Shown in pieces: positions 128 through 63,799 of a stretch of 64,000 nucleotides of DNA. The stretch is taken from assembly GCF_003334405.1 (NCBI RefSeq), contig NZ_QOWM01000016.1; one strand, 5' to 3'. The position numbers were made by a program, and so were the translations under genes. Position 1 is the stretch's first letter. Each line of letters opens with the position of its first letter. The DNA comes from Escherichia coli. Its GTDB lineage: Bacteria; Pseudomonadota; Gammaproteobacteria; Enterobacterales; Enterobacteriaceae. The notes below the pieces were generated by a model, which searched no databases, was not told the DNA's origin, and saw only the letters and a program-made list of their open reading frames with translations.

Positions 128-3140
<3,013 letters not shown>

Positions 3141-3977
3141 ATGACCGTATTACATAGTGTGGATTTTTTTCCGTCTGGTAACGCGTCCGTGGCGATAGAA
3201 CCCCGGCTCCCGCAGGCGGATTTTCCTGAACATCATCATGATTTTCATGAAATTGTGATTGTCGAACATGGCACGGGTATTCATGTGTTTAATGGGCAGC
3301 CCTATACCATCACCGGTGGCACGGTCTGTTTCGTACGCGATCATGATCGGCATCTGTATGAACATACCGATAATCTGTGTCTGACCAATGTGCTGTATCG
3401 CTCGCCGGATCGATTTCAGTTTCTCGCCGGGCTGAATCAGTTGCTGCCACAAGAGCTGGATGGGCAGTATCCGTCTCACTGGCGCGTTAACCACAGCGTA
3501 TTGCAGCAGGTGCGACAGCTGGTTGCACAGATGGAACAGCAGGAAGGGGAAAATGATTTACCCTCGACCGCCAGTCGCGAGATCTTGTTTATGCAATTAC
3601 TGCTCTTGCTGTGTAAAAGCAGTTTGCAGGAGAACCTGGAAAACAGCGCATCACGTCTCAACTTGCTTCTGGCCTGGCTGGAGGACCATTTTGCCGATGA
3701 GGTGAATTGGGATGCCGTGGCGGATCAATTTTCTCTTTCACTGCGTACGCTACATCGGCAGCTTAAGCAGCAAACGGGACTGACGCCTCAGCGATACCTG
3801 AACCGCCTGCGACTGATGAAAGCCCGACATCTGCTACGCCACAGCGAGGCCAGCGTTACTGACATCGCCTATCGCTGTGGATTCAGCGACAGTAACCACT
3901 TTTCGACGCTTTTTCGCCGAGAGTTTAACTGGTCACCGCGTGATATTCGCCAGGGACGGGATGGCTTTCTGCAATAA
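3141..3977 (+). CDS. rhaS: AraC-family activator of rhaBAD and rhaT
   Basis: 278-aa [44 protein letters not shown]..., C-terminal AraC HTH; AGGAGG RBS at 3130..3135. Confidence 0.95.
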
Positions 3978-4050
3978 CGCGAATCTTCTCAACGTATTTG
4001 TACGCCATATTGCGAATAATCAACTTCGTTCTCTGGCCGAGGTAGCCACG

Positions 4051-4899
4051 GTGGCGCATCAGTTAAAACTTCTCAAAGATGATTTTTTTGCCAGCGACCA
4101 GCAGGCAGTCGCTGTGGCTGACCGTTATCCGCAAGATGTCTTTGCTGAACATACACATGATTTTTGTGAGCTGGTGATTGTCTGGCGCGGTAATGGCCTG
4201 CATGTACTCAACGATCGCCCTTATCGCATTACCCGTGGCGATCTCTTTTACATTCATGCTGACGATAAACACTCCTACGCTTCCGTTAACGATCTGGTTT
4301 TGCAGAATATTATTTATTGCCCGGAGCGTCTGAAGCTGAATCTTGACTGGCAGGGGGCGATTCCGGGATTTAACGCCAGCGCAGGGCAACCACACTGGCG
4401 CTTAGGTAGCATGGGGATGGCGCAGGCGCGGCAGGTTATCGGTCAGCTTGAGCATGAAAGTAGTCAGCATGTGCCGTTTGCTAACGAAATGGCTGAGTTG
4501 CTGTTCGGGCAGTTGGTGATGTTGCTGAATCGCCATCGTTACACCAGTGATTCGTTGCCGCCAACATCCAGCGAAACGTTGCTGGATAAGCTGATTACCC
4601 GGCTGGCGGCTAGCCTGAAAAGTCCCTTTGCGCTGGATAAATTTTGTGATGAGGCATCGTGCAGTGAGCGCGTTTTGCGTCAGCAATTTCGCCAGCAGAC
4701 TGGAATGACCATCAATCAATATCTGCGACAGGTCAGAGTGTGTCATGCGCAATATCTTCTCCAGCATAGCCGCCTGTTAATCAGTGATATTTCGACCGAA
4801 TGTGGCTTTGAAGATAGTAACTATTTTTCGGTGGTGTTTACCCGGGAAACCGGGATGACGCCCAGCCAGTGGCGTCATCTCAATTCGCAGAAAGATTAA
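4051..4899 (+). CDS. rhaR: AraC-family activator of rhaSR
   Basis: Track ORF 3877..4899 extends upstream into rhaS; the currently accepted 282-aa product starts at GTG 4051 ([13 protein letters not shown]...), an older 312-aa model starts at ATG 3961. AraC-type HTH at the C-terminus. Confidence 0.85.
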
Positions 4900-8911: not shown

Positions 8912-8992
8912 GTAGGCCTGATAAGACGCTATCAGCGTCGCATCAGGCATCCTGCTCAAATGCCGGATGCGGCGTAAACGCCTTATCCTGCC
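8912..8992. repeat. REP/BIME between convergent yiiM and cpxA
   Basis: GTAGGCCTGATAAGACGCTATCAGCGTCGCATCAGGC and a degenerate GCCGGATGCGGCGTAAACGCCTTATCC palindrome. Confidence 0.8.
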
Positions 8993-18697: not shown

Positions 18698-19126
18698 ATG
18701 GCTTATAAACACATTGGCGTGGCAATTTCCGGGAATGAAGAAGATGCCTTACTGGTGAATAAAGCCCTGGAGCTCGCCAGACATAATGACGCTCACCTGA
18801 CGTTAATTCATATTGATGATGGCTTAAGCGAGTTGTATCCGGGTATCTACTTCCCTGCAACAGAAGATATTCTTCAATTGTTGAAGAATAAGTCGGATAA
18901 CAAGCTGTATAAACTGACGAAAAATATTCAATGGCCGAAGACAAAACTGCGTATTGAACGCGGAGAAATGCCGGAAACACTGCTGGAAATTATGCAAAAA
19001 GAGCAGTGCGACCTCCTTGTCTGTGGTCATCATCACTCATTTATCAACCGTTTGATGCCGGCATATCGCGGGATGATCAATAAGATGAGTGCGGATTTGC
19101 TCATCGTGCCGTTTATCGATAAGTAA
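18698..19126 (+). CDS. uspD: universal stress protein D
   Basis: 142-aa [43 protein letters not shown]... Confidence 0.85.
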
Positions 19127-19130
19127 CCGC

Positions 19131-19877
19131 TTACCAGTAATGCTCCGCTGTCATATGGCCCGGTCGGCGACGTAAATGTTTCGTCATCTGCCGGGTCTCT
19201 TTCAGCAACTGTTGTGTATCGCGCACCATCTGTGGATTGCCGCACAGCATCACATGGCTGGTTTCTTTATTCATCGGCAGGCCAATCGTGCTTTCCAGTT
19301 CCCCACTTTCAATTAATGCCGGTATCCGTCCGGTGAGCGACCCCGCTGCCGTTTCCCGACTGACCACCGTCTGAATGCGCAGTTTTCCTTCGTAGCGTTT
19401 TTCCAGTTCCTGCATCAGTGGCAAATAGCTTAAGTCGGCGGCATAACGTGCGGCGTGCACCAGGACCAGATTTTTGAAGCGATCTAAATCTTTACCTAGT
19501 TGCAGAATCGATAAATAAGGGCCAATCGCTGTACCGGTTGCCAGCATCCATAGCGTTTCGCAGTGCGGCACTTCATCGAGCACAAAGAATCCTGCCGCTT
19601 CGCTAACCACCTGCACTTCATCGCCTGGTTTCAGTGCCGCCAGTCGTGGGCTTAATTTGCCATCGGGGACGGTGACCAGGTAAAACTCCAGATCGGGATT
19701 ATCGGGCGAGTTTACATAGGAGTAGGCGCGCTGGACGCGTTCGCCGTCGATTTCAAGGCCAAGCTTGGTAAATTGCCCGGCGGTAAACGGAAGCACGGGG
19801 GCGTGAACGGTGAGACTAAACAGGGCGTCGGTCCAGTTCTGCACTTTAGTGACTTTGCCTGTTACCCAATCAGCCAT
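19131..19877 (-). CDS. fpr: flavodoxin/ferredoxin-NADP+ reductase
   Basis: 248-aa ORF, MADWVTGKVTKVQNWTDALFSLTVHAPVLPFTAGQFTKLGLE... Confidence 0.93.
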   Translation of the reverse strand: MADWVTGKVTKVQNWTDALFSLTVHAPVLPFTAGQFTKLGLEIDGERVQRAYSYVNSPDNPDLEFYLVTVPDGKLSPRLAALKPGDEVQVVSEAAGFFVLDEVPHCETLWMLATGTAIGPYLSILQLGKDLDRFKNLVLVHAARYAADLSYLPLMQELEKRYEGKLRIQTVVSRETAAGSLTGRIPALIESGELESTIGLPMNKETSHVMLCGNPQMVRDTQQLLKETRQMTKHLRRRPGHMTAEHYW

Positions 19878-27161: not shown

Positions 27162-27692
27162 TTACGCTTTGTAGCTTAATTCTTCGATGGTGTGGAAATG
27201 GTTGGTATAGATGCAAATGTCGCCTGCAATATCCAACGCCTTTTCAGCAATTTCACGGGCGCTAAGTTCAGTGTTTTCTAACAGCGCGCGCGCCGCAGCC
27301 TGGGCGTAAGGGCCGCCGGAGCCGATAGCAATAAGATCGTTTTCTGGCTGCACCACGTCACCGTTACCGGTGATGATAAGCGATGCAGTTTCATCCGCGA
27401 CTGCCAGCAGTGCTTCAAGTTTGCGCAGCATGCGATCGGTACGCCAGTCTTTTGCCAGCTCAACGGCGGCTTTGACCAGATGGCCCTGATGCATTTCCAG
27501 TTTACGTTCAAACAGTTCGAACAGCGTAAAAGCATCCGCAGTACCGCCCGCAAAGCCCGCGATGACTTTGTCGTTGTACAGACGGCGGACCTTTTTCACG
27601 TTGCCTTTCATTACGGTATTGCCCAACGTGGCCTGACCATCACCAGCGATGACCACATGGCCGTTACGGCGTACGCTTACTATAGTTGTCAC
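27162..27692 (-). CDS. hslV: ATP-dependent protease subunit HslV
   Basis: 176-aa [42 protein letters not shown]...; N-terminal Thr nucleophile after Met removal. Confidence 0.96.
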
Positions 27693-27751
27693 GAGCTGAC
27701 CCCTTGGTTACGAATACAGAGTACAAACCCCGTACAAAAGTACGGGGCATA

Positions 27752-47626: not shown

Positions 47627-47934
47627 TGCCTCTCTCCCGGTACGGTTTTCTGTTTACAGGATAAGAGCGCACGGCAACGGCCTGCCATGTGACAAATCTG
47701 CCAAAAGCTGGACAAATGTAATGTAACCGTCAATTTGCGACGCGTCTCACAAGACGCTGTTTTGCGGCATGCTTCCGGTTTATCGCAAGTTATGAGGCGG
47801 ATCGCATTTTTGTACTGATATTACAAAAGTCCAGTAAATGGCCTTTTTATCCACTGTTTGCTCCGCCTGCGATTGCCTATTGTTTCCTCCATCAAAAATA
47901 TGGACATGGGCTTTCGCAAGCCCGGGAGCAGCTT

Positions 47935-49399: not shown

Positions 49400-51697
49400 A
49401 TGACGAATCGTATCTCTCGCCTCAAAACTGCACTGTTTGCCAATACCCGTGAAATCTCGCTGGAGCGGGCGCTGCTTTATACCGCCAGCCATCGGCAAAC
49501 CGAAGGCGAACCGGTGATATTGCGCCGGGCGAAAGCAACAGCGTATATCCTTGAACATGTTGAAATTTCGATTCGTGATGAAGAACTGATTGCCGGTAAC
49601 CGCACCGTAAAACCGCGCGCCGGGATTATGTCGCCGGAAATGGACCCTTACTGGCTGCTGAAAGAGCTGGATCAATTCCCGACGCGTCCGCAGGACCGCT
49701 TTGCTATCAGCGAAGAAGATAAACGTATCTACCGTGAAGAGTTGTTCCCGTACTGGGAAAAACGTTCGATGAAAGATTTCATCAACGGGCAGATGACAGA
49801 TGAAGTAAAAGCCGCGACCAACACGCAGATTTTCAGCATCAACCAGACGGATAAAGGCCAGGGGCACATTATTATTGATTACCCACGCCTGTTGAATCAC
49901 GGGCTGGGTGAGCTGGTGGCACAGATGCAGCAACATTGTCAGCAACAGCCGGAGAATCACTTTTATCAGGCCGCGTTGTTACTGCTGGAAGCCTCGCAGA
50001 AACACATTTTGCGTTACGCCGAACTGGCGGAAACGATGGCGGCAAACTGCACAGATGCCCAGCGTCGCGAAGAGCTGCTGACTATTGCAGAGATCTCCCG
50101 CCATAACGCGCAACATAAGCCGCAGACGTTCTGGCAGGCGTGCCAGTTATTCTGGTACATGAACATCATTCTGCAATACGAATCCAACGCCAGTTCGCTA
50201 TCGTTGGGGCGCTTCGACCAGTATATGTTGCCGTTCTATCAGACATCATTAACCCAGGGCGAAGATGCGGCGTTCCTGAAAGAACTGCTCGAATCTTTAT
50301 GGGTGAAATGCAACGACATCGTGCTGTTGCGCTCCACCAGTAGCGCGCGTTATTTCGCCGGTTTCCCGACCGGCTATACCGCACTGCTCGGCGGGTTAAC
50401 CGAGAACGGACGTAGCGCGGTGAACGTGCTTTCGTTCCTTTGCCTTGACGCCTATCAAAGCGTGCAATTACCGCAACCGAACCTCGGCGTGCGCACTAAC
50501 GCCTTGATCGACACGCCGTTCCTGATGAAAACCGCCGAAACCATTCGCTTCGGCACCGGTATTCCGCAAATCTTTAACGATGAAGTGGTGGTGCCAGCGT
50601 TCCTCAACCGTGGCGTTTCGCTGGAAGATGCGCGCGACTATTCCGTAGTGGGCTGTGTGGAATTATCTATTCCCGGCAGAACCTACGGCTTGCATGACAT
50701 CGCGATGTTTAATCTGCTGAAAGTGATGGAAATCTGCCTGCATGAAAATGAAGGCAATGCTGCGCTGACTTATGAAGGTTTACTGGAGCAGATCCGCGCC
50801 AAGATCAGCCACTACATCACCCTGATGGTTGAGGGCAGCAATATTTGTGATATCGGCCATCGCGACTGGGCACCTGTACCGCTGCTCTCATCGTTTATCA
50901 GCGATTGTCTGGAAAAAGGCCGCGATATTACCGATGGCGGCGCGCGTTATAACTTCTCCGGCGTACAGGGGATCGGTATCGCCAACCTGAGCGATTCTCT
51001 CCATGCGTTGAAAGGGATGGTTTTTGAGCAACAGCGTTTAAGTTTTGACGAATTGCTGTCGGTATTAAAAGCCAACTTCGCAACGCCAGAAGGCGAAAAA
51101 GTCCGCGCTCGCTTAATTAACCGCTTCGAGAAATACGGTAACGATATCGACGAGGTGGATAACATCAGCGCCGAACTGTTGCGCCACTACTGCAAAGAAG
51201 TGGAAAAATACCAGAACCCGCGCGGCGGCTACTTCACGCCGGGATCGTATACCGTTTCTGCTCACGTCCCGTTGGGATCGGTGGTTGGCGCGACGCCAGA
51301 CGGTCGTTTTGCCGGAGAACAGCTGGCAGACGGCGGCTTGTCACCCATGCTGGGCCAGGACGCACAAGGGCCAACAGCGGTACTGAAGTCAGTCAGTAAG
51401 CTCGATAACACGCTGCTGTCTAACGGTACGTTGCTGAACGTGAAATTCACTCCGGCGACCCTGGAAGGTGAAGCAGGATTACGCAAACTGGCCGACTTCT
51501 TACGGGCGTTTACCCAGCTTAAGTTACAACATATTCAGTTTAACGTGGTGAACGCCGACACGTTGCGGGAAGCGCAACAGCGCCCACAAGATTATGCCGG
51601 GCTGGTGGTGCGCGTTGCCGGATACAGCGCCTTCTTTGTCGAACTGTCGAAGGAGATCCAGGATGACATCATCCGCCGGACAGCGCATCAGCTGTAA
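49400..51697 (+). CDS. pflD: glycyl-radical enzyme, PFL family (annotated formate acetyltransferase 2)
   Basis: 765-aa ORF; C-terminal glycyl-radical motif RVAGYSA (Gly codon at 51620..51622); active-site loop VGCVE (Cys codon 50654..50656, Glu 50660..50662). Confidence 0.9.
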   Translation: MTNRISRLKTALFANTREISLERALLYTASHRQTEGEPVILRRAKATAYILEHVEISIRDEELIAGNRTVKPRAGIMSPEMDPYWLLKELDQFPTRPQDRFAISEEDKRIYREELFPYWEKRSMKDFINGQMTDEVKAATNTQIFSINQTDKGQGHIIIDYPRLLNHGLGELVAQMQQHCQQQPENHFYQAALLLLEASQKHILRYAELAETMAANCTDAQRREELLTIAEISRHNAQHKPQTFWQACQLFWYMNIILQYESNASSLSLGRFDQYMLPFYQTSLTQGEDAAFLKELLESLWVKCNDIVLLRSTSSARYFAGFPTGYTALLGGLTENGRSAVNVLSFLCLDAYQSVQLPQPNLGVRTNALIDTPFLMKTAETIRFGTGIPQIFNDEVVVPAFLNRGVSLEDARDYSVVGCVELSIPGRTYGLHDIAMFNLLKVMEICLHENEGNAALTYEGLLEQIRAKISHYITLMVEGSNICDIGHRDWAPVPLLSSFISDCLEKGRDITDGGARYNFSGVQGIGIANLSDSLHALKGMVFEQQRLSFDELLSVLKANFATPEGEKVRARLINRFEKYGNDIDEVDNISAELLRHYCKEVEKYQNPRGGYFTPGSYTVSAHVPLGSVVGATPDGRFAGEQLADGGLSPMLGQDAQGPTAVLKSVSKLDNTLLSNGTLLNVKFTPATLEGEAGLRKLADFLRAFTQLKLQHIQFNVVNADTLREAQQRPQDYAGLVVRVAGYSAFFVELSKEIQDDIIRRTAHQL

Positions 51698-52541
51698 CGT
51701 TGTGGAAACGCGCCGCGATGATGTGGCGCGCATTTTCAACATTCAGCGTTATTCACTGAATGACGGCGAGGGCATTCGTACGGTGGTCTTTTTTAAAGGC
51801 TGTCCGCATCTTTGCCCGTGGTGTGCTAATCCGGAGTCGATCTCCGGCAAAATCCAGACGGTACGCAGAGAGGCGAAATGTCTGCACTGTGCGAAATGTT
51901 TGCGTGATGCGGATGAATGCCCCTCCGGGGCGTTTGAACGGATTGGTCGCGATATCAGCCTTGACGCTCTGGAACGGGAAGTGATGAAAGATGACATTTT
52001 CTTTCGCACGTCCGGCGGCGGCGTCACGCTTTCTGGCGGCGAAGTGTTAATGCAGGCGGAGTTTGCTACCCGTTTTTTACAGCGACTGCGGCTGTGGGGT
52101 GTGTCATGCGCCATTGAAACTGCCGGAGACGCACCAGCCAGCAAGCTATTACCGCTGGCGAAATTGTGCGATGAAGTGTTGTTCGATTTAAAAATTATGG
52201 ACGCGACTCAGGCGCGGGATGTGGTGAAGATGAACCTGCCACGCGTGCTGGAGAATCTGCGTTTGCTGGTGAGTGAGGGCGTCAACGTGATCCCGCGTTT
52301 ACCGCTGATCCCTGGTTTCACGCTCAGCCGGGAGAATATGCAGCAGGCGCTGGATGTACTGATCCCGCTGAATATCAGGCAGATCCATCTGTTACCGTTT
52401 CATCAGTACGGCGAACCGAAATACCGCCTGCTGGGGAAAACATGGTCGATGAAAGAGGTGCCTGCGCCGTCGTCAGCTGATGTGGCAACGATGCGCGAAA
52501 TGGCAGAACGGGCCGGACTTCAGGTTACCGTGGGAGGTTAA
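51663..52541 (+). CDS. pflC: glycyl-radical enzyme activating enzyme (radical SAM)
   Basis: Track ORF 51594..52541 trimmed to MTSSAGQRISCNVVETRRDDVARIF (292 aa); radical-SAM cluster motif CPHLCPWC plus a second Cys-rich stretch CLHCAKCLRDADECP; 35-bp overlap with pflD. Confidence 0.88.
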   Translation: MTSSAGQRISCNVVETRRDDVARIFNIQRYSLNDGEGIRTVVFFKGCPHLCPWCANPESISGKIQTVRREAKCLHCAKCLRDADECPSGAFERIGRDISLDALEREVMKDDIFFRTSGGGVTLSGGEVLMQAEFATRFLQRLRLWGVSCAIETAGDAPASKLLPLAKLCDEVLFDLKIMDATQARDVVKMNLPRVLENLRLLVSEGVNVIPRLPLIPGFTLSRENMQQALDVLIPLNIRQIHLLPFHQYGEPKYRLLGKTWSMKEVPAPSSADVATMREMAERAGLQVTVGG

Positions 52542-52542
52542 A

Positions 52543-52884
52543 ATGGCATACCTGGTGGCAGTAACCGCCTGCGTAAGCGGCGTGGCGCATACTTATATGG
52601 CGGCGGAACGGCTGGAAAAGTTGTGCCTGTTAGAGAAGTGGGGAGTCAGCATTGAAACTCAGGGCGCGCTGGGAACGGAGAATCGTTTAGCGGATGAGGA
52701 TATCCGCCGGGCGGATGTTGCTCTGTTGATTACGGATATCGAGCTTGCCGGTGCCGAGCGATTTGAACATTGCCGCTATGTGCAATGCAGCATCTACGCA
52801 TTCCTGCGTGAGCCGCAGCGGGTAATGAGCGCGGTGCGCAAAGTGCTTTCTGCGCCGCAGCAAACCCATCTTATTCTGGAGTAG
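52543..52884 (+). CDS. frwD: fructose-like PTS IIB-type component
   Basis: Track ORF 52480..52884 trimmed to MAYLVAVTACVSGVAHTYMAAERLEKL (113 aa); paralogous to frwB (same TAC.SGVAHTYMAAE motif). Confidence 0.85.
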   Translation: MAYLVAVTACVSGVAHTYMAAERLEKLCLLEKWGVSIETQGALGTENRLADEDIRRADVALLITDIELAGAERFEHCRYVQCSIYAFLREPQRVMSAVRKVLSAPQQTHLILE

Positions 52885-53722
52885 TCGGTTTTTCTGTCAG
52901 TTGGCTGTGGTACTGCCGGCGATATTCCGACGGCGAGCGTTCGGTGTTTTTACGAAACAGACGGCAGAAGTAGTTGCTGTCGACAAAGCCGCAGGCGTGC
53001 GCCACTTCTTTTACCTTCAGGTCATAGCCTTTCAATAACGTCTTAGCGTGCTCCAGTCGCGTGTGATTCAGGTATTCGTTAAAACCAATGGCCCCCGTTT
53101 TTTGAAACAGGTGCGAGAGGTAATTTGGCGAAATATAAAACGCCTGTGCAACAGATTCGCGGGTAAGCGCGGAGGCATAGCGTTCGTCGATATAATCGCG
53201 AATAGCTTCAAATAGTGCCTGGCTGCGTGAGGCGGTCTGGATTTGGCTGCCAAGCAAATCGCGGCAGTGGCTAAGCAGGCTGGCGACGATAAGCCTTGCC
53301 GTTTGCTGCTCCTGCGGCTGCATTTGCATTTCATTGAGCGTTTGTAGCAGAAAAGAACCTATGCGTGGGCCGCGTCGGGCGACGTGTTGCTTCGCCAGAT
53401 TTTGATATTGTTTGCCATCCCATTGCACGACGCTGAAGCCGAGTTGCTGTTTGCCAAACAGCACGCTAAAGGTAGTAGCGGGGGCTTGCCATTGTGGAAA
53501 ATTCCAGCCACCAGCAGGAACGTACAGCACATCGCCGGGAACTAACGTTGCTCCAGCGCCGGTATCAACAAACTCACCTTCCAGCACAATTTCCAGCCGT
53601 GGAAAATCGACCTGATACGCAAGATCGGGCACCGGGCCGTTACTGCTGGCAAAGTAAATCTGGCGCAGGGACAGCGGGCCGTTGATCAGGCGGGAGAGCA
53701 GATAGCTGACGTCGTGATACAT
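52871..53722 (-). CDS. yijO: AraC-family transcriptional regulator
   Basis: 283-aa ORF; C-terminal AraC-type HTH (…NEYLNHTRLEHAKTLLKGYDLKVKEVAHACGFVDSNYFCRLFRKNTERSPSEYRRQ). Confidence 0.85.
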   Translation of the reverse strand: MYHDVSYLLSRLINGPLSLRQIYFASSNGPVPDLAYQVDFPRLEIVLEGEFVDTGAGATLVPGDVLYVPAGGWNFPQWQAPATTFSVLFGKQQLGFSVVQWDGKQYQNLAKQHVARRGPRIGSFLLQTLNEMQMQPQEQQTARLIVASLLSHCRDLLGSQIQTASRSQALFEAIRDYIDERYASALTRESVAQAFYISPNYLSHLFQKTGAIGFNEYLNHTRLEHAKTLLKGYDLKVKEVAHACGFVDSNYFCRLFRKNTERSPSEYRRQYHSQLTEKPTTPE

Positions 53723-53798: not shown

Positions 53799-53833
53799 AG
53801 GGGAGTTCGATGTAAACATTGCGGCAGTTGTAT

Positions 53834-53917
53834 TGCCGGATGTGGCGTAAACGCCTTATCCAGCCTACCGCCGCGATCTGTAGGCCGGATAAGACGCGTC
53901 AAGCGTCGCATCCGGCA
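53834..53917. repeat. REP/BIME between eptC and yijO
   Basis: TGCCGGATGTGGCGTAAACGCCTTATCCAGCCTAC and GTAGGCCGGATAAGACGCGTCAAGCGTCGCATCCGGCA; spurious ORFs 53768..53962 and 53819..54025 lie inside. Confidence 0.85.
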
Positions 53918-53936
53918 AATAGCGCCTGGCTGATAA

Positions 53937-63683: not shown

Positions 63684-63799
63684 AAAAAAAGCGGATCCTG
63701 GAGATCCGCAAAAGTTCACGTTGGCTTTAGTTATTCGAGTTGAGAAACTCTCGAAACGGGCAGTGACTTCAAGGGTTAAAAGAGGTGCCGCTCCGTTTC
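63684..63799 (-). ncRNA. oxyS: OxyS oxidative-stress small RNA
   Basis: The minus strand reads GAAACGGAGCGGCACCTCTTTTAACCCTTGAAGTCACTGCCCGTTTCGAGAGTTTCTCAACTCGAATAACTAAAGCCAACGTGAACTTTTGCGGATCTCCAGGATCCGCTTTTTTTT, matching the OxyS sequence as I recall it, including the terminal hairpin GCGGATCTCCAGGATCCGC plus U-tract; divergent from oxyR. The 3' end is approximate. Confidence 0.85.

Follow-up and report, generated by a model that had tools for sequence, protein, structure and literature searches.

The convergent 14-bp overlap between frwD and yijO in Escherichia coli and its conservation in Enterobacteriaceae

In Escherichia coli, the terminal gene of the frw operon, frwD, and the oppositely oriented yijO gene end inside one another. 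Such an arrangement raises the questions of whether the overlap is real, how old it is, what keeps it in place and whether it couples the expression of the two genes. We addressed these questions in a 64,000-nt stretch of E. coli DNA (contig NZ_QOWM01000016.1), hereafter referred to as the window, whose positions are used throughout. The reading that we hold with high confidence is that of a genuine and ancient tail-to-tail overlap, maintained by dual-coding inertia and not by a dedicated function.

Anatomy and conservation of the frwD/yijO junction

The junction is composed of the following elements:

52543..52884, plus strand: frwD coding sequence, 342 bp, 113 aa, PTS EIIB-like (from the sequence, the ORF list and the annotation)
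52871..53722, minus strand: yijO coding sequence, 852 bp, 283 aa, AraC-family regulator of unknown function (from the ORF list and the annotation)
52882..52884, plus strand: frwD stop codon TAG, spanning yijO codons T280/T281
52871..52873, minus strand: yijO stop codon TAA, antisense of frwD cTT Att
52871..52884, both strands: 14-bp stretch common to both genes, read from the sequence
52870..52875, plus strand: frwD codons 110-111 (CTT ATT), whose third and first bases, respectively, are constrained to supply the yijO stop

On the plus strand, frwD terminates with ...CAT CTT ATT CTG GAG TAG, up to position 52884, and the TTA at 52871-52873 reads TAA on the minus strand. In the frwD frame, the common stretch comprises two nucleotides of L110 followed by I111, L112, E113 and the stop; in the yijO frame, it comprises two nucleotides of T280 followed by T281, P282, E283 and the stop. 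The codon positions of the two genes are thereby paired 1:1, 2:3 and 3:2. The first-pass annotation had placed both stops at these positions and described a convergent 14-bp overlap. The stops are confirmed by the sequence, the ORFs and RefSeq, and the overlap proved exact to the base, with each stop lying inside the coding sequence of its partner on the opposite strand. We found the same ends of both genes called by RefSeq/PGAP in MC4100 and BW25113 (K-12 derivatives identical to the window here), in an E. coli of 96.7% identity and in E2348/69.

Both ORFs are genuine protein-coding genes. FrwD matches the Pfam family PTS_IIB (E=8e-15, residues 5-95), and YijO carries an AraC-type DNA-binding domain (HTH_18, E=4.5e-21, residues 192-270); orthologues of full length, 66-100% identical, occur in 80 species. 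By these limits, neither Pfam domain is reached by the overlap, which takes up just the three to four terminal codons of each gene. frwD is the last gene in the order frwC-frwB-pflD-pflC-frwD. Its longest mechanical ORF opens at an upstream ATG at 52480, and the annotated start at 52543 is a refinement of it. We also observed that the operon is tightly packed throughout its pflD, pflC and frwD part: the pflC stop (TAA, 52539-41) and the frwD ATG are one base apart, and pflD shares 35 bp with pflC, which runs in the same direction (window 51663-51697).

The conservation of the overlap, a check proposed in the first-pass annotation, was followed both within E. coli and among species. In a survey of 5426 complete E. 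coli genomes, the 64-nt junction with the overlap at its centre was present at 95% identity or more in 5417, and 4931 of these 5417 carry it letter for letter. The 1243-bp frwD+yijO segment was recovered at a coverage of at least 80% in 5416 of the 5426 genomes. The rare exceptions are structural changes. In strain T28R (NZ_CP142708.1; locus 3716-4162), a deletion has joined the 5' portions of frwC and yijO; both genes are annotated as pseudogenes, and frwB-pflDC-frwD together with most of yijO are gone. In turn, strain ST540 (NZ_CP007265.1; locus 2540-3302) harbours IS1A within the part of yijO encoding the C-terminal tail, just past the frwD stop, so that frwD is intact and yijO has been re-annotated as a 285-aa gene ending in the IS. 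This insertion is a natural physical 'uncoupling' of frwD from yijO.

Among species, we scanned for YijO in one genome per GTDB species, which gave 80 loci; both genes were located and each was extended to its stop. Shigella was either placed inside E. coli or absent in the collections used, and E. fergusonii had no locus among the 80. Among the scanned loci, frwD adjoins yijO in 52 Enterobacteriaceae species. In 45 of these 52, frwD and yijO overlap by exactly 14 bp, a count of phylogenetically related species and hence not of independent events. The 45 species span at least 12 genera, including Escherichia, Citrobacter, Pseudocitrobacter, Phytobacter, Kosakonia (one species), Intestinirhabdus, Enterobacter, Trabulsiella, Pluralibacter, Lelliottia, Kluyvera and Buttiauxella. 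Of the remaining seven species, three have an 8-bp overlap and one each has 29 bp, 11 bp, 4 bp (TTAA) or 0 bp (Leclercia adecarboxylata), and a spacer between frwD and yijO was found in none of the 52. This distribution indicates that the overlap is ancient.

The frw operon itself is less constant than its junction with yijO. Eight loci, all from Pseudocitrobacter and Kluyvera, have a frwC-frwB-frwD operon devoid of pflDC, and the 14-bp overlap is unchanged in such operons. The absence of pflDC between frwB and frwD in these genera marks it as a movable insert. Another locus of unexpected layout comes from a record titled Edwardsiella hoshinae NBRC 105699, a genus outside Enterobacteriaceae. 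It encodes a YijO of 84% identity within a complete frwB-pflDC-frwD/yijO arrangement, with a 4-bp TTAA overlap and neither eptC nor ppc upstream of yijO, which suggests that the locus was acquired horizontally or that the contig is mislabelled.

A sequencing error or a miscalled stop that lengthens one of the two ORFs had been named in the first-pass annotation as what could overturn the overlap. We found nothing in favour of such an artefact, and it is virtually ruled out by the occurrence of the junction in 5417 of 5426 genomes, in 4931 of them without a single change, and by the co-location of both stops in 45 species, in which the substitutions are stop-preserving (TAA exchanged with TGA; TAG, TAA or TGA). 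The C-terminus of FrwD is, moreover, conserved to the penultimate residue, and the conservation of the overlap among orthologues with matching protein lengths speaks against a misannotated 3' extension.

Dual coding at the ends of frwD and yijO

We found that among orthologues with the 14-bp overlap the frwD stop is TAG in 33, TAA in 9 and TGA in 3, and that the yijO stop reads TTA (37) or TCA (8) on the plus strand, i.e., TAA or TGA. Codon 110 of frwD is CTT, ATT, ATC, TTT, GTC or CTC, its last base being always T or C (NTY), and codon 111 invariably begins with A; in consequence, the antisense is always TAA or TGA. Wherever codon 110 encodes Leu, it is CTT or CTC and never CTG, in 24 of 24 species, which are related and do not amount to 24 independent trials. 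Among the other Leu codons of the same frwD genes, CTY accounts for 27% and CTG for 48%. The site does vary among species, only in ways that preserve the stop. This codon usage shows a dual-coding constraint, under which the yijO stop carried in the antisense of frwD would be under selection.

The two protein ends differ in their conservation. The C-terminus of FrwD, ...APQxTH[L/I][I/T]L-x-stop, is kept across genera. In turn, the conserved core of YijO ends with ...YHSQLTEK and is followed by a short, variable tail (PTTPE, KTTPE, EANPE, TTE etc.), which differs or is absent where frw is missing, e.g., TEK* in Salmonella enterica subsp. arizonae and diarizonae. Given the 1:1, 2:3, 3:2 pairing, the last residues of YijO are dictated by the Ile-Leu codons of FrwD (ATT CTG yields ..CCA GAA, Pro-Glu).

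From these features we propose how the arrangement may be held. The yijO frame would pass its conserved core into a dispensable tail and end at the first antisense stop, which would be supplied by a frwD codon NTY for L, I, F or V and a following Ann codon for I or T, giving TAA or TGA. The conserved C-terminus of FrwD would fix the last residues of YijO, usually -P-E, and the requirement for a yijO stop would in turn bar from frwD the otherwise preferred CTG Leu codon. Escape from this state seems difficult in both directions. Loss of a stop would cost yijO an extension of 46 aa and frwD one of 53 aa. As for shortening, no single substitution turns a Pro or Thr codon in the tail of YijO into a stop, and the sole tail codon that is one step from a stop (GAA to TAA) could change only by altering the conserved Leu112 of FrwD. 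With stop loss being costly and few single mutations able to shorten FrwD or YijO without harming the partner, dual-coding inertia would be enough to explain why the overlap persists. The 14 bp do not represent a required length, as evidenced by the drift to 0, 4, 8, 11 and 29 bp. Selection for the overlap itself is also conceivable, considering that 45 of the 52 species share the same length and that a spacer is found nowhere among them.

yijO loci without the frw operon

The first-pass annotation had further presented yijO as 'the regulator' tied to the frw operon. This designation lacks support. YijO is still listed with those transcription factors of E. coli whose function is unknown (PMC9308461), and the sole binding reported for it, from an in vitro screen, is to a probe of the rmf promoter (PMC6134199); on YijO function and on frwD/pflC transcription, we found lists and screens in the literature and no characterisation. 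In our scan, 27 of 79 species keep yijO in a ppc-(eptC)-yijO neighbourhood without adjacent frwD, pflDC or frwB, which departs from the co-occurrence to be expected of a dedicated regulator and its operon. In nearly all of these frw-less species yijO is followed by a same-strand ORF of 220 aa, and in most of them by one of 367 aa; the two lengths match those of fsaB and gldA, located beyond ptsA in E. coli.

In the divergent ptsA/frwC intergenic region (window 47805-47841), we observed a near-palindrome, ATTTTTGTA-N7-TACAAAAGT, followed by CCAGTAAATG. Upstream of frwC in Kluyvera and Pseudocitrobacter, its right half, ACAAAA(A/G)TCCAG TAAATG...TTTTTATCC, shows strong conservation. The motif TACAAAAATCCAG TAAATG... 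is located upstream of frwC in E. coli, Kluyvera and Pseudocitrobacter, and the same motif occurs near the yijO stop, upstream of fsaB, in 21 of the 27 frw-less species. Its distance to the yijO stop is 178 nt in Citrobacter sp. R56 and 8-45 nt in the 20 others. We regard the motif at 47805-47841 as a candidate operator/promoter element, and possibly it constitutes the real connection of yijO with this frw locus.

The frw-less loci look like the outcome of repeated losses of the frwC...frwD block up to, and not into, yijO. The clearest case is Citrobacter sp. R56, in which the frw operon is gone and fragments of the frwD 3' end remain over approximately 180 nt past the yijO stop. They correspond to frwD nucleotides 139-161, 240-277 and 313-338 of 342, and the yijO stop is at the old overlap position; this is a decaying deletion scar. 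Clear frwD remnants beside yijO were found among the frw-less species just in this one, the other nine pairs giving no significant match. The sequences therefore favour deletion over insertion for the Citrobacter sp. R56 lineage alone.

Transcription across the junction and related gene pairs

Conservation at the junction might also reflect an element within the shared region, be it a compact terminator acting in both directions or some different RNA or DNA feature. The junction region is conserved, and a T-run (GGTTTTTCTG) is located directly 3' of the frwD stop. However, the T-run is the antisense of conserved Glu-Lys codons of YijO and is not preceded by a hairpin, and the two protein sequences fully account for the conservation of the junction. 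A consensus scan detected no terminator-like site near 52871-52884. Single-sequence folds of the junction RNA were unremarkable on both strands (z = 0.34 and -1.76), consensus folds of a 21-species alignment reached only -2.7 and -3.8 kcal/mol on the two strands and contained no more than a single compensatory pair, in one sequence, and searching the entire window at the Rfam gathering thresholds gave no family near 52.8 kb. An intrinsic or bidirectional terminator at this site is rejected by the concordant scan, z-scores and consensus folds, and we consider any conserved element of this kind very improbable. The sole promoter-like match in the region, on the minus strand (52900..52873; 9/12), is at chance level, with 1 found and 1.6 expected.

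Other features of the window comprise repeats upstream of yijO and four Rfam matches:

53833..53918: nested inverted repeats of REP/BIME type, GCCGGATAAGACGC / GCGTCGCATCCGGC, in the eptC/yijO interval, immediately upstream of yijO
63690-63799, minus strand: OxyS sRNA (Rfam)
8915-8992, minus strand: REP-derived naRNA4 (Rfam)
27690-27747, minus strand: ClpQY (hslVU) promoter element (Rfam)
32359-32411, plus strand: L31 leader (Rfam)

The BIME upstream of yijO has been placed in a putative 'attenuator' cluster (PMC2965389). The four Rfam matches are expected for this K-12 region and unrelated to the frwD/yijO overlap.

As for the ends of the transcripts, one further region is relevant:

52551..52790, minus strand: C-rich, G-poor RNA past the yijO stop (C/G 1.5-2.2 in 80-nt windows)

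This region is antisense to frwD and to the end of pflC, and its composition makes it a plausible candidate for Rho loading on the yijO transcript. In turn, the RNA past the frwD stop is G-rich, and frw read-through may reach further into yijO. Lacking both intergenic DNA and an intrinsic terminator, the junction leaves each polymerase no choice but to enter the partner gene. Each transcript would run into it as antisense RNA, and the overlap of the two mRNAs would amount to no less than 14 nt, probably to far more. We infer that transcript ends are probably Rho-dependent, plausibly so for yijO with its C-rich downstream RNA, and that the overlap has no selected regulatory role.

The overlap of the coding sequences also makes any mRNA with a complete frwD or yijO reading frame complementary to the 3' end of the partner. 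The earlier statement that full-length transcripts of each gene are antisense to the end of the other thus follows by logic, and published RNA-seq agrees with it: frwD-yijO is listed among 165 convergent pairs with overlapping transcripts in a coverage-based analysis of 58 MG1655 transcriptomes (PMC12288877, Table 1). The present analysis shows the anatomy, the conservation, the constraint on codons and that no hairpin is present, and the transcript overlap is taken from this RNA-seq literature. Since the coding regions already overlap, the listing is nearly automatic and silent on reciprocal regulation.

Being flagged as an excludon by RNA-seq nonetheless leaves room for a regulatory effect. 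According to this rival reading, the overlap is a selected 'excludon', in which polymerase collisions and RNase III-cleaved double-stranded RNA would let frw/pfl induction lower YijO, and vice versa; such mutual antagonism would also be the reason why frwD and yijO were never separated. Membership of the pair in the MG1655 'excludome', in at least 50% of the 58 transcriptomes (PMC12288877), is in line with this, as are the lack of a spacer in all 52 species, the constant 14 bp in 45 of 52 species and the read-through made unavoidable by the missing intrinsic terminator between or near the two stops. Yet, the coverage-based method flags any expressed pair of overlapping coding sequences, and the listing is therefore no evidence of regulation. 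The length of the overlap has drifted in seven lineages, yijO has been retained without frw in 27 species, and one E. coli strain carries IS1 between the two genes. Expression or RNase III data on frwD-yijO were found neither in the papers located nor in the text of PMC12288877. Altogether, both the antagonism and its role in keeping the genes together appear unlikely to us. A stronger form, in which the overlap was kept through the history of these Enterobacteriaceae as a hard-wired excludon that sets a bistable or mutually exclusive switch between frw/pfl and YijO, is slightly less probable again, and the same holds for its corollary that the switch went unstudied owing to a lack of expression of both units in laboratory media. 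Dual-coding inertia remains the explanation that we prefer.

In kind, the frwD/yijO pair resembles many others. Convergent overlaps constitute 3035 of 42,055 overlaps (7%) among well-characterised genes of 338 genomes (PMC2478687), and about 1890 such cases were recorded in 58 genomes, where phase (123:132) is the commonest among those of at least 5 nt (49% of 1218) (PMC2174442). Like these pairs, frwD and yijO are opposite-strand genes with a short overlap in phase (123:132), and nothing essential differs. Conservation among orthologues, which serves to recognise genuine convergent overlaps in PMC2478687, is found here as well; the overlap of frwD and yijO spans at least 12 genera, whereas most long convergent overlaps in that study are confined to very close species. 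Like the excludons reported by ExcludonFinder (PMC12288877), the pair has a short intergenic distance, -14 nt here against an E. coli mean of 95 nt; in contrast to the 146 of 165 pairs with an intrinsic terminator predicted inside the partner gene, none was found for it. Documentation for the pair is confined to the transcript overlap, and antagonistic expression, double-stranded RNA and RNase III dependence would be hypothetical here.

Two of the nine annotated convergent junctions in the 64-kb window overlap, namely frwD/yijO and rhaR/rhaT. The latter also pairs a gene for an AraC-family regulator with a sugar-transport gene, is convergent with overlapping stops and figures in the excludon list. 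Its overlap (rhaR on the plus strand, rhaT on the minus strand) is a stop-on-stop TTAA of 4 bp (window 4896-4899), which shares no sense codon, in contrast to the 14 bp of frwD/yijO, and the targets of RhaR are known, whereas those of YijO are not. We also observed that the convergent ends of uspD and fpr are 4 bp apart (window 19126-19131) and that this pair is likewise in the excludon list (PMC12288877). A further entry in that list, mscL-arfA, consists of convergent E. coli genes with antisense 3' regions, whose overlap reportedly has regulatory consequences (PMC10070815). Unlike frwD/yijO, mscL-arfA reportedly has experimental support, and it serves as a lead rather than a tested comparison.

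The frwD/yijO overlap is real, already annotated and catalogued, and ordinary in kind. To this, our analysis adds the depth of its conservation, an explicit dual-coding constraint and the finding of no support for yijO as a dedicated frw regulator. The ends annotated for frwD and yijO are confirmed as correct, which is of little import beyond housekeeping. The locus is, in turn, a textbook case of mutual frame constraint, with a rare Leu codon fixed in frwD and the C-terminus of FrwD setting the end of YijO. In practice, any deletion or tag placed at the 3' end of one gene (Keio-type deletions, C-terminal tags, CRISPR edits) alters its partner. If the excludon reading were true, the pair would be one more convergent-transcription switch on the list of 165 in E. 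coli.
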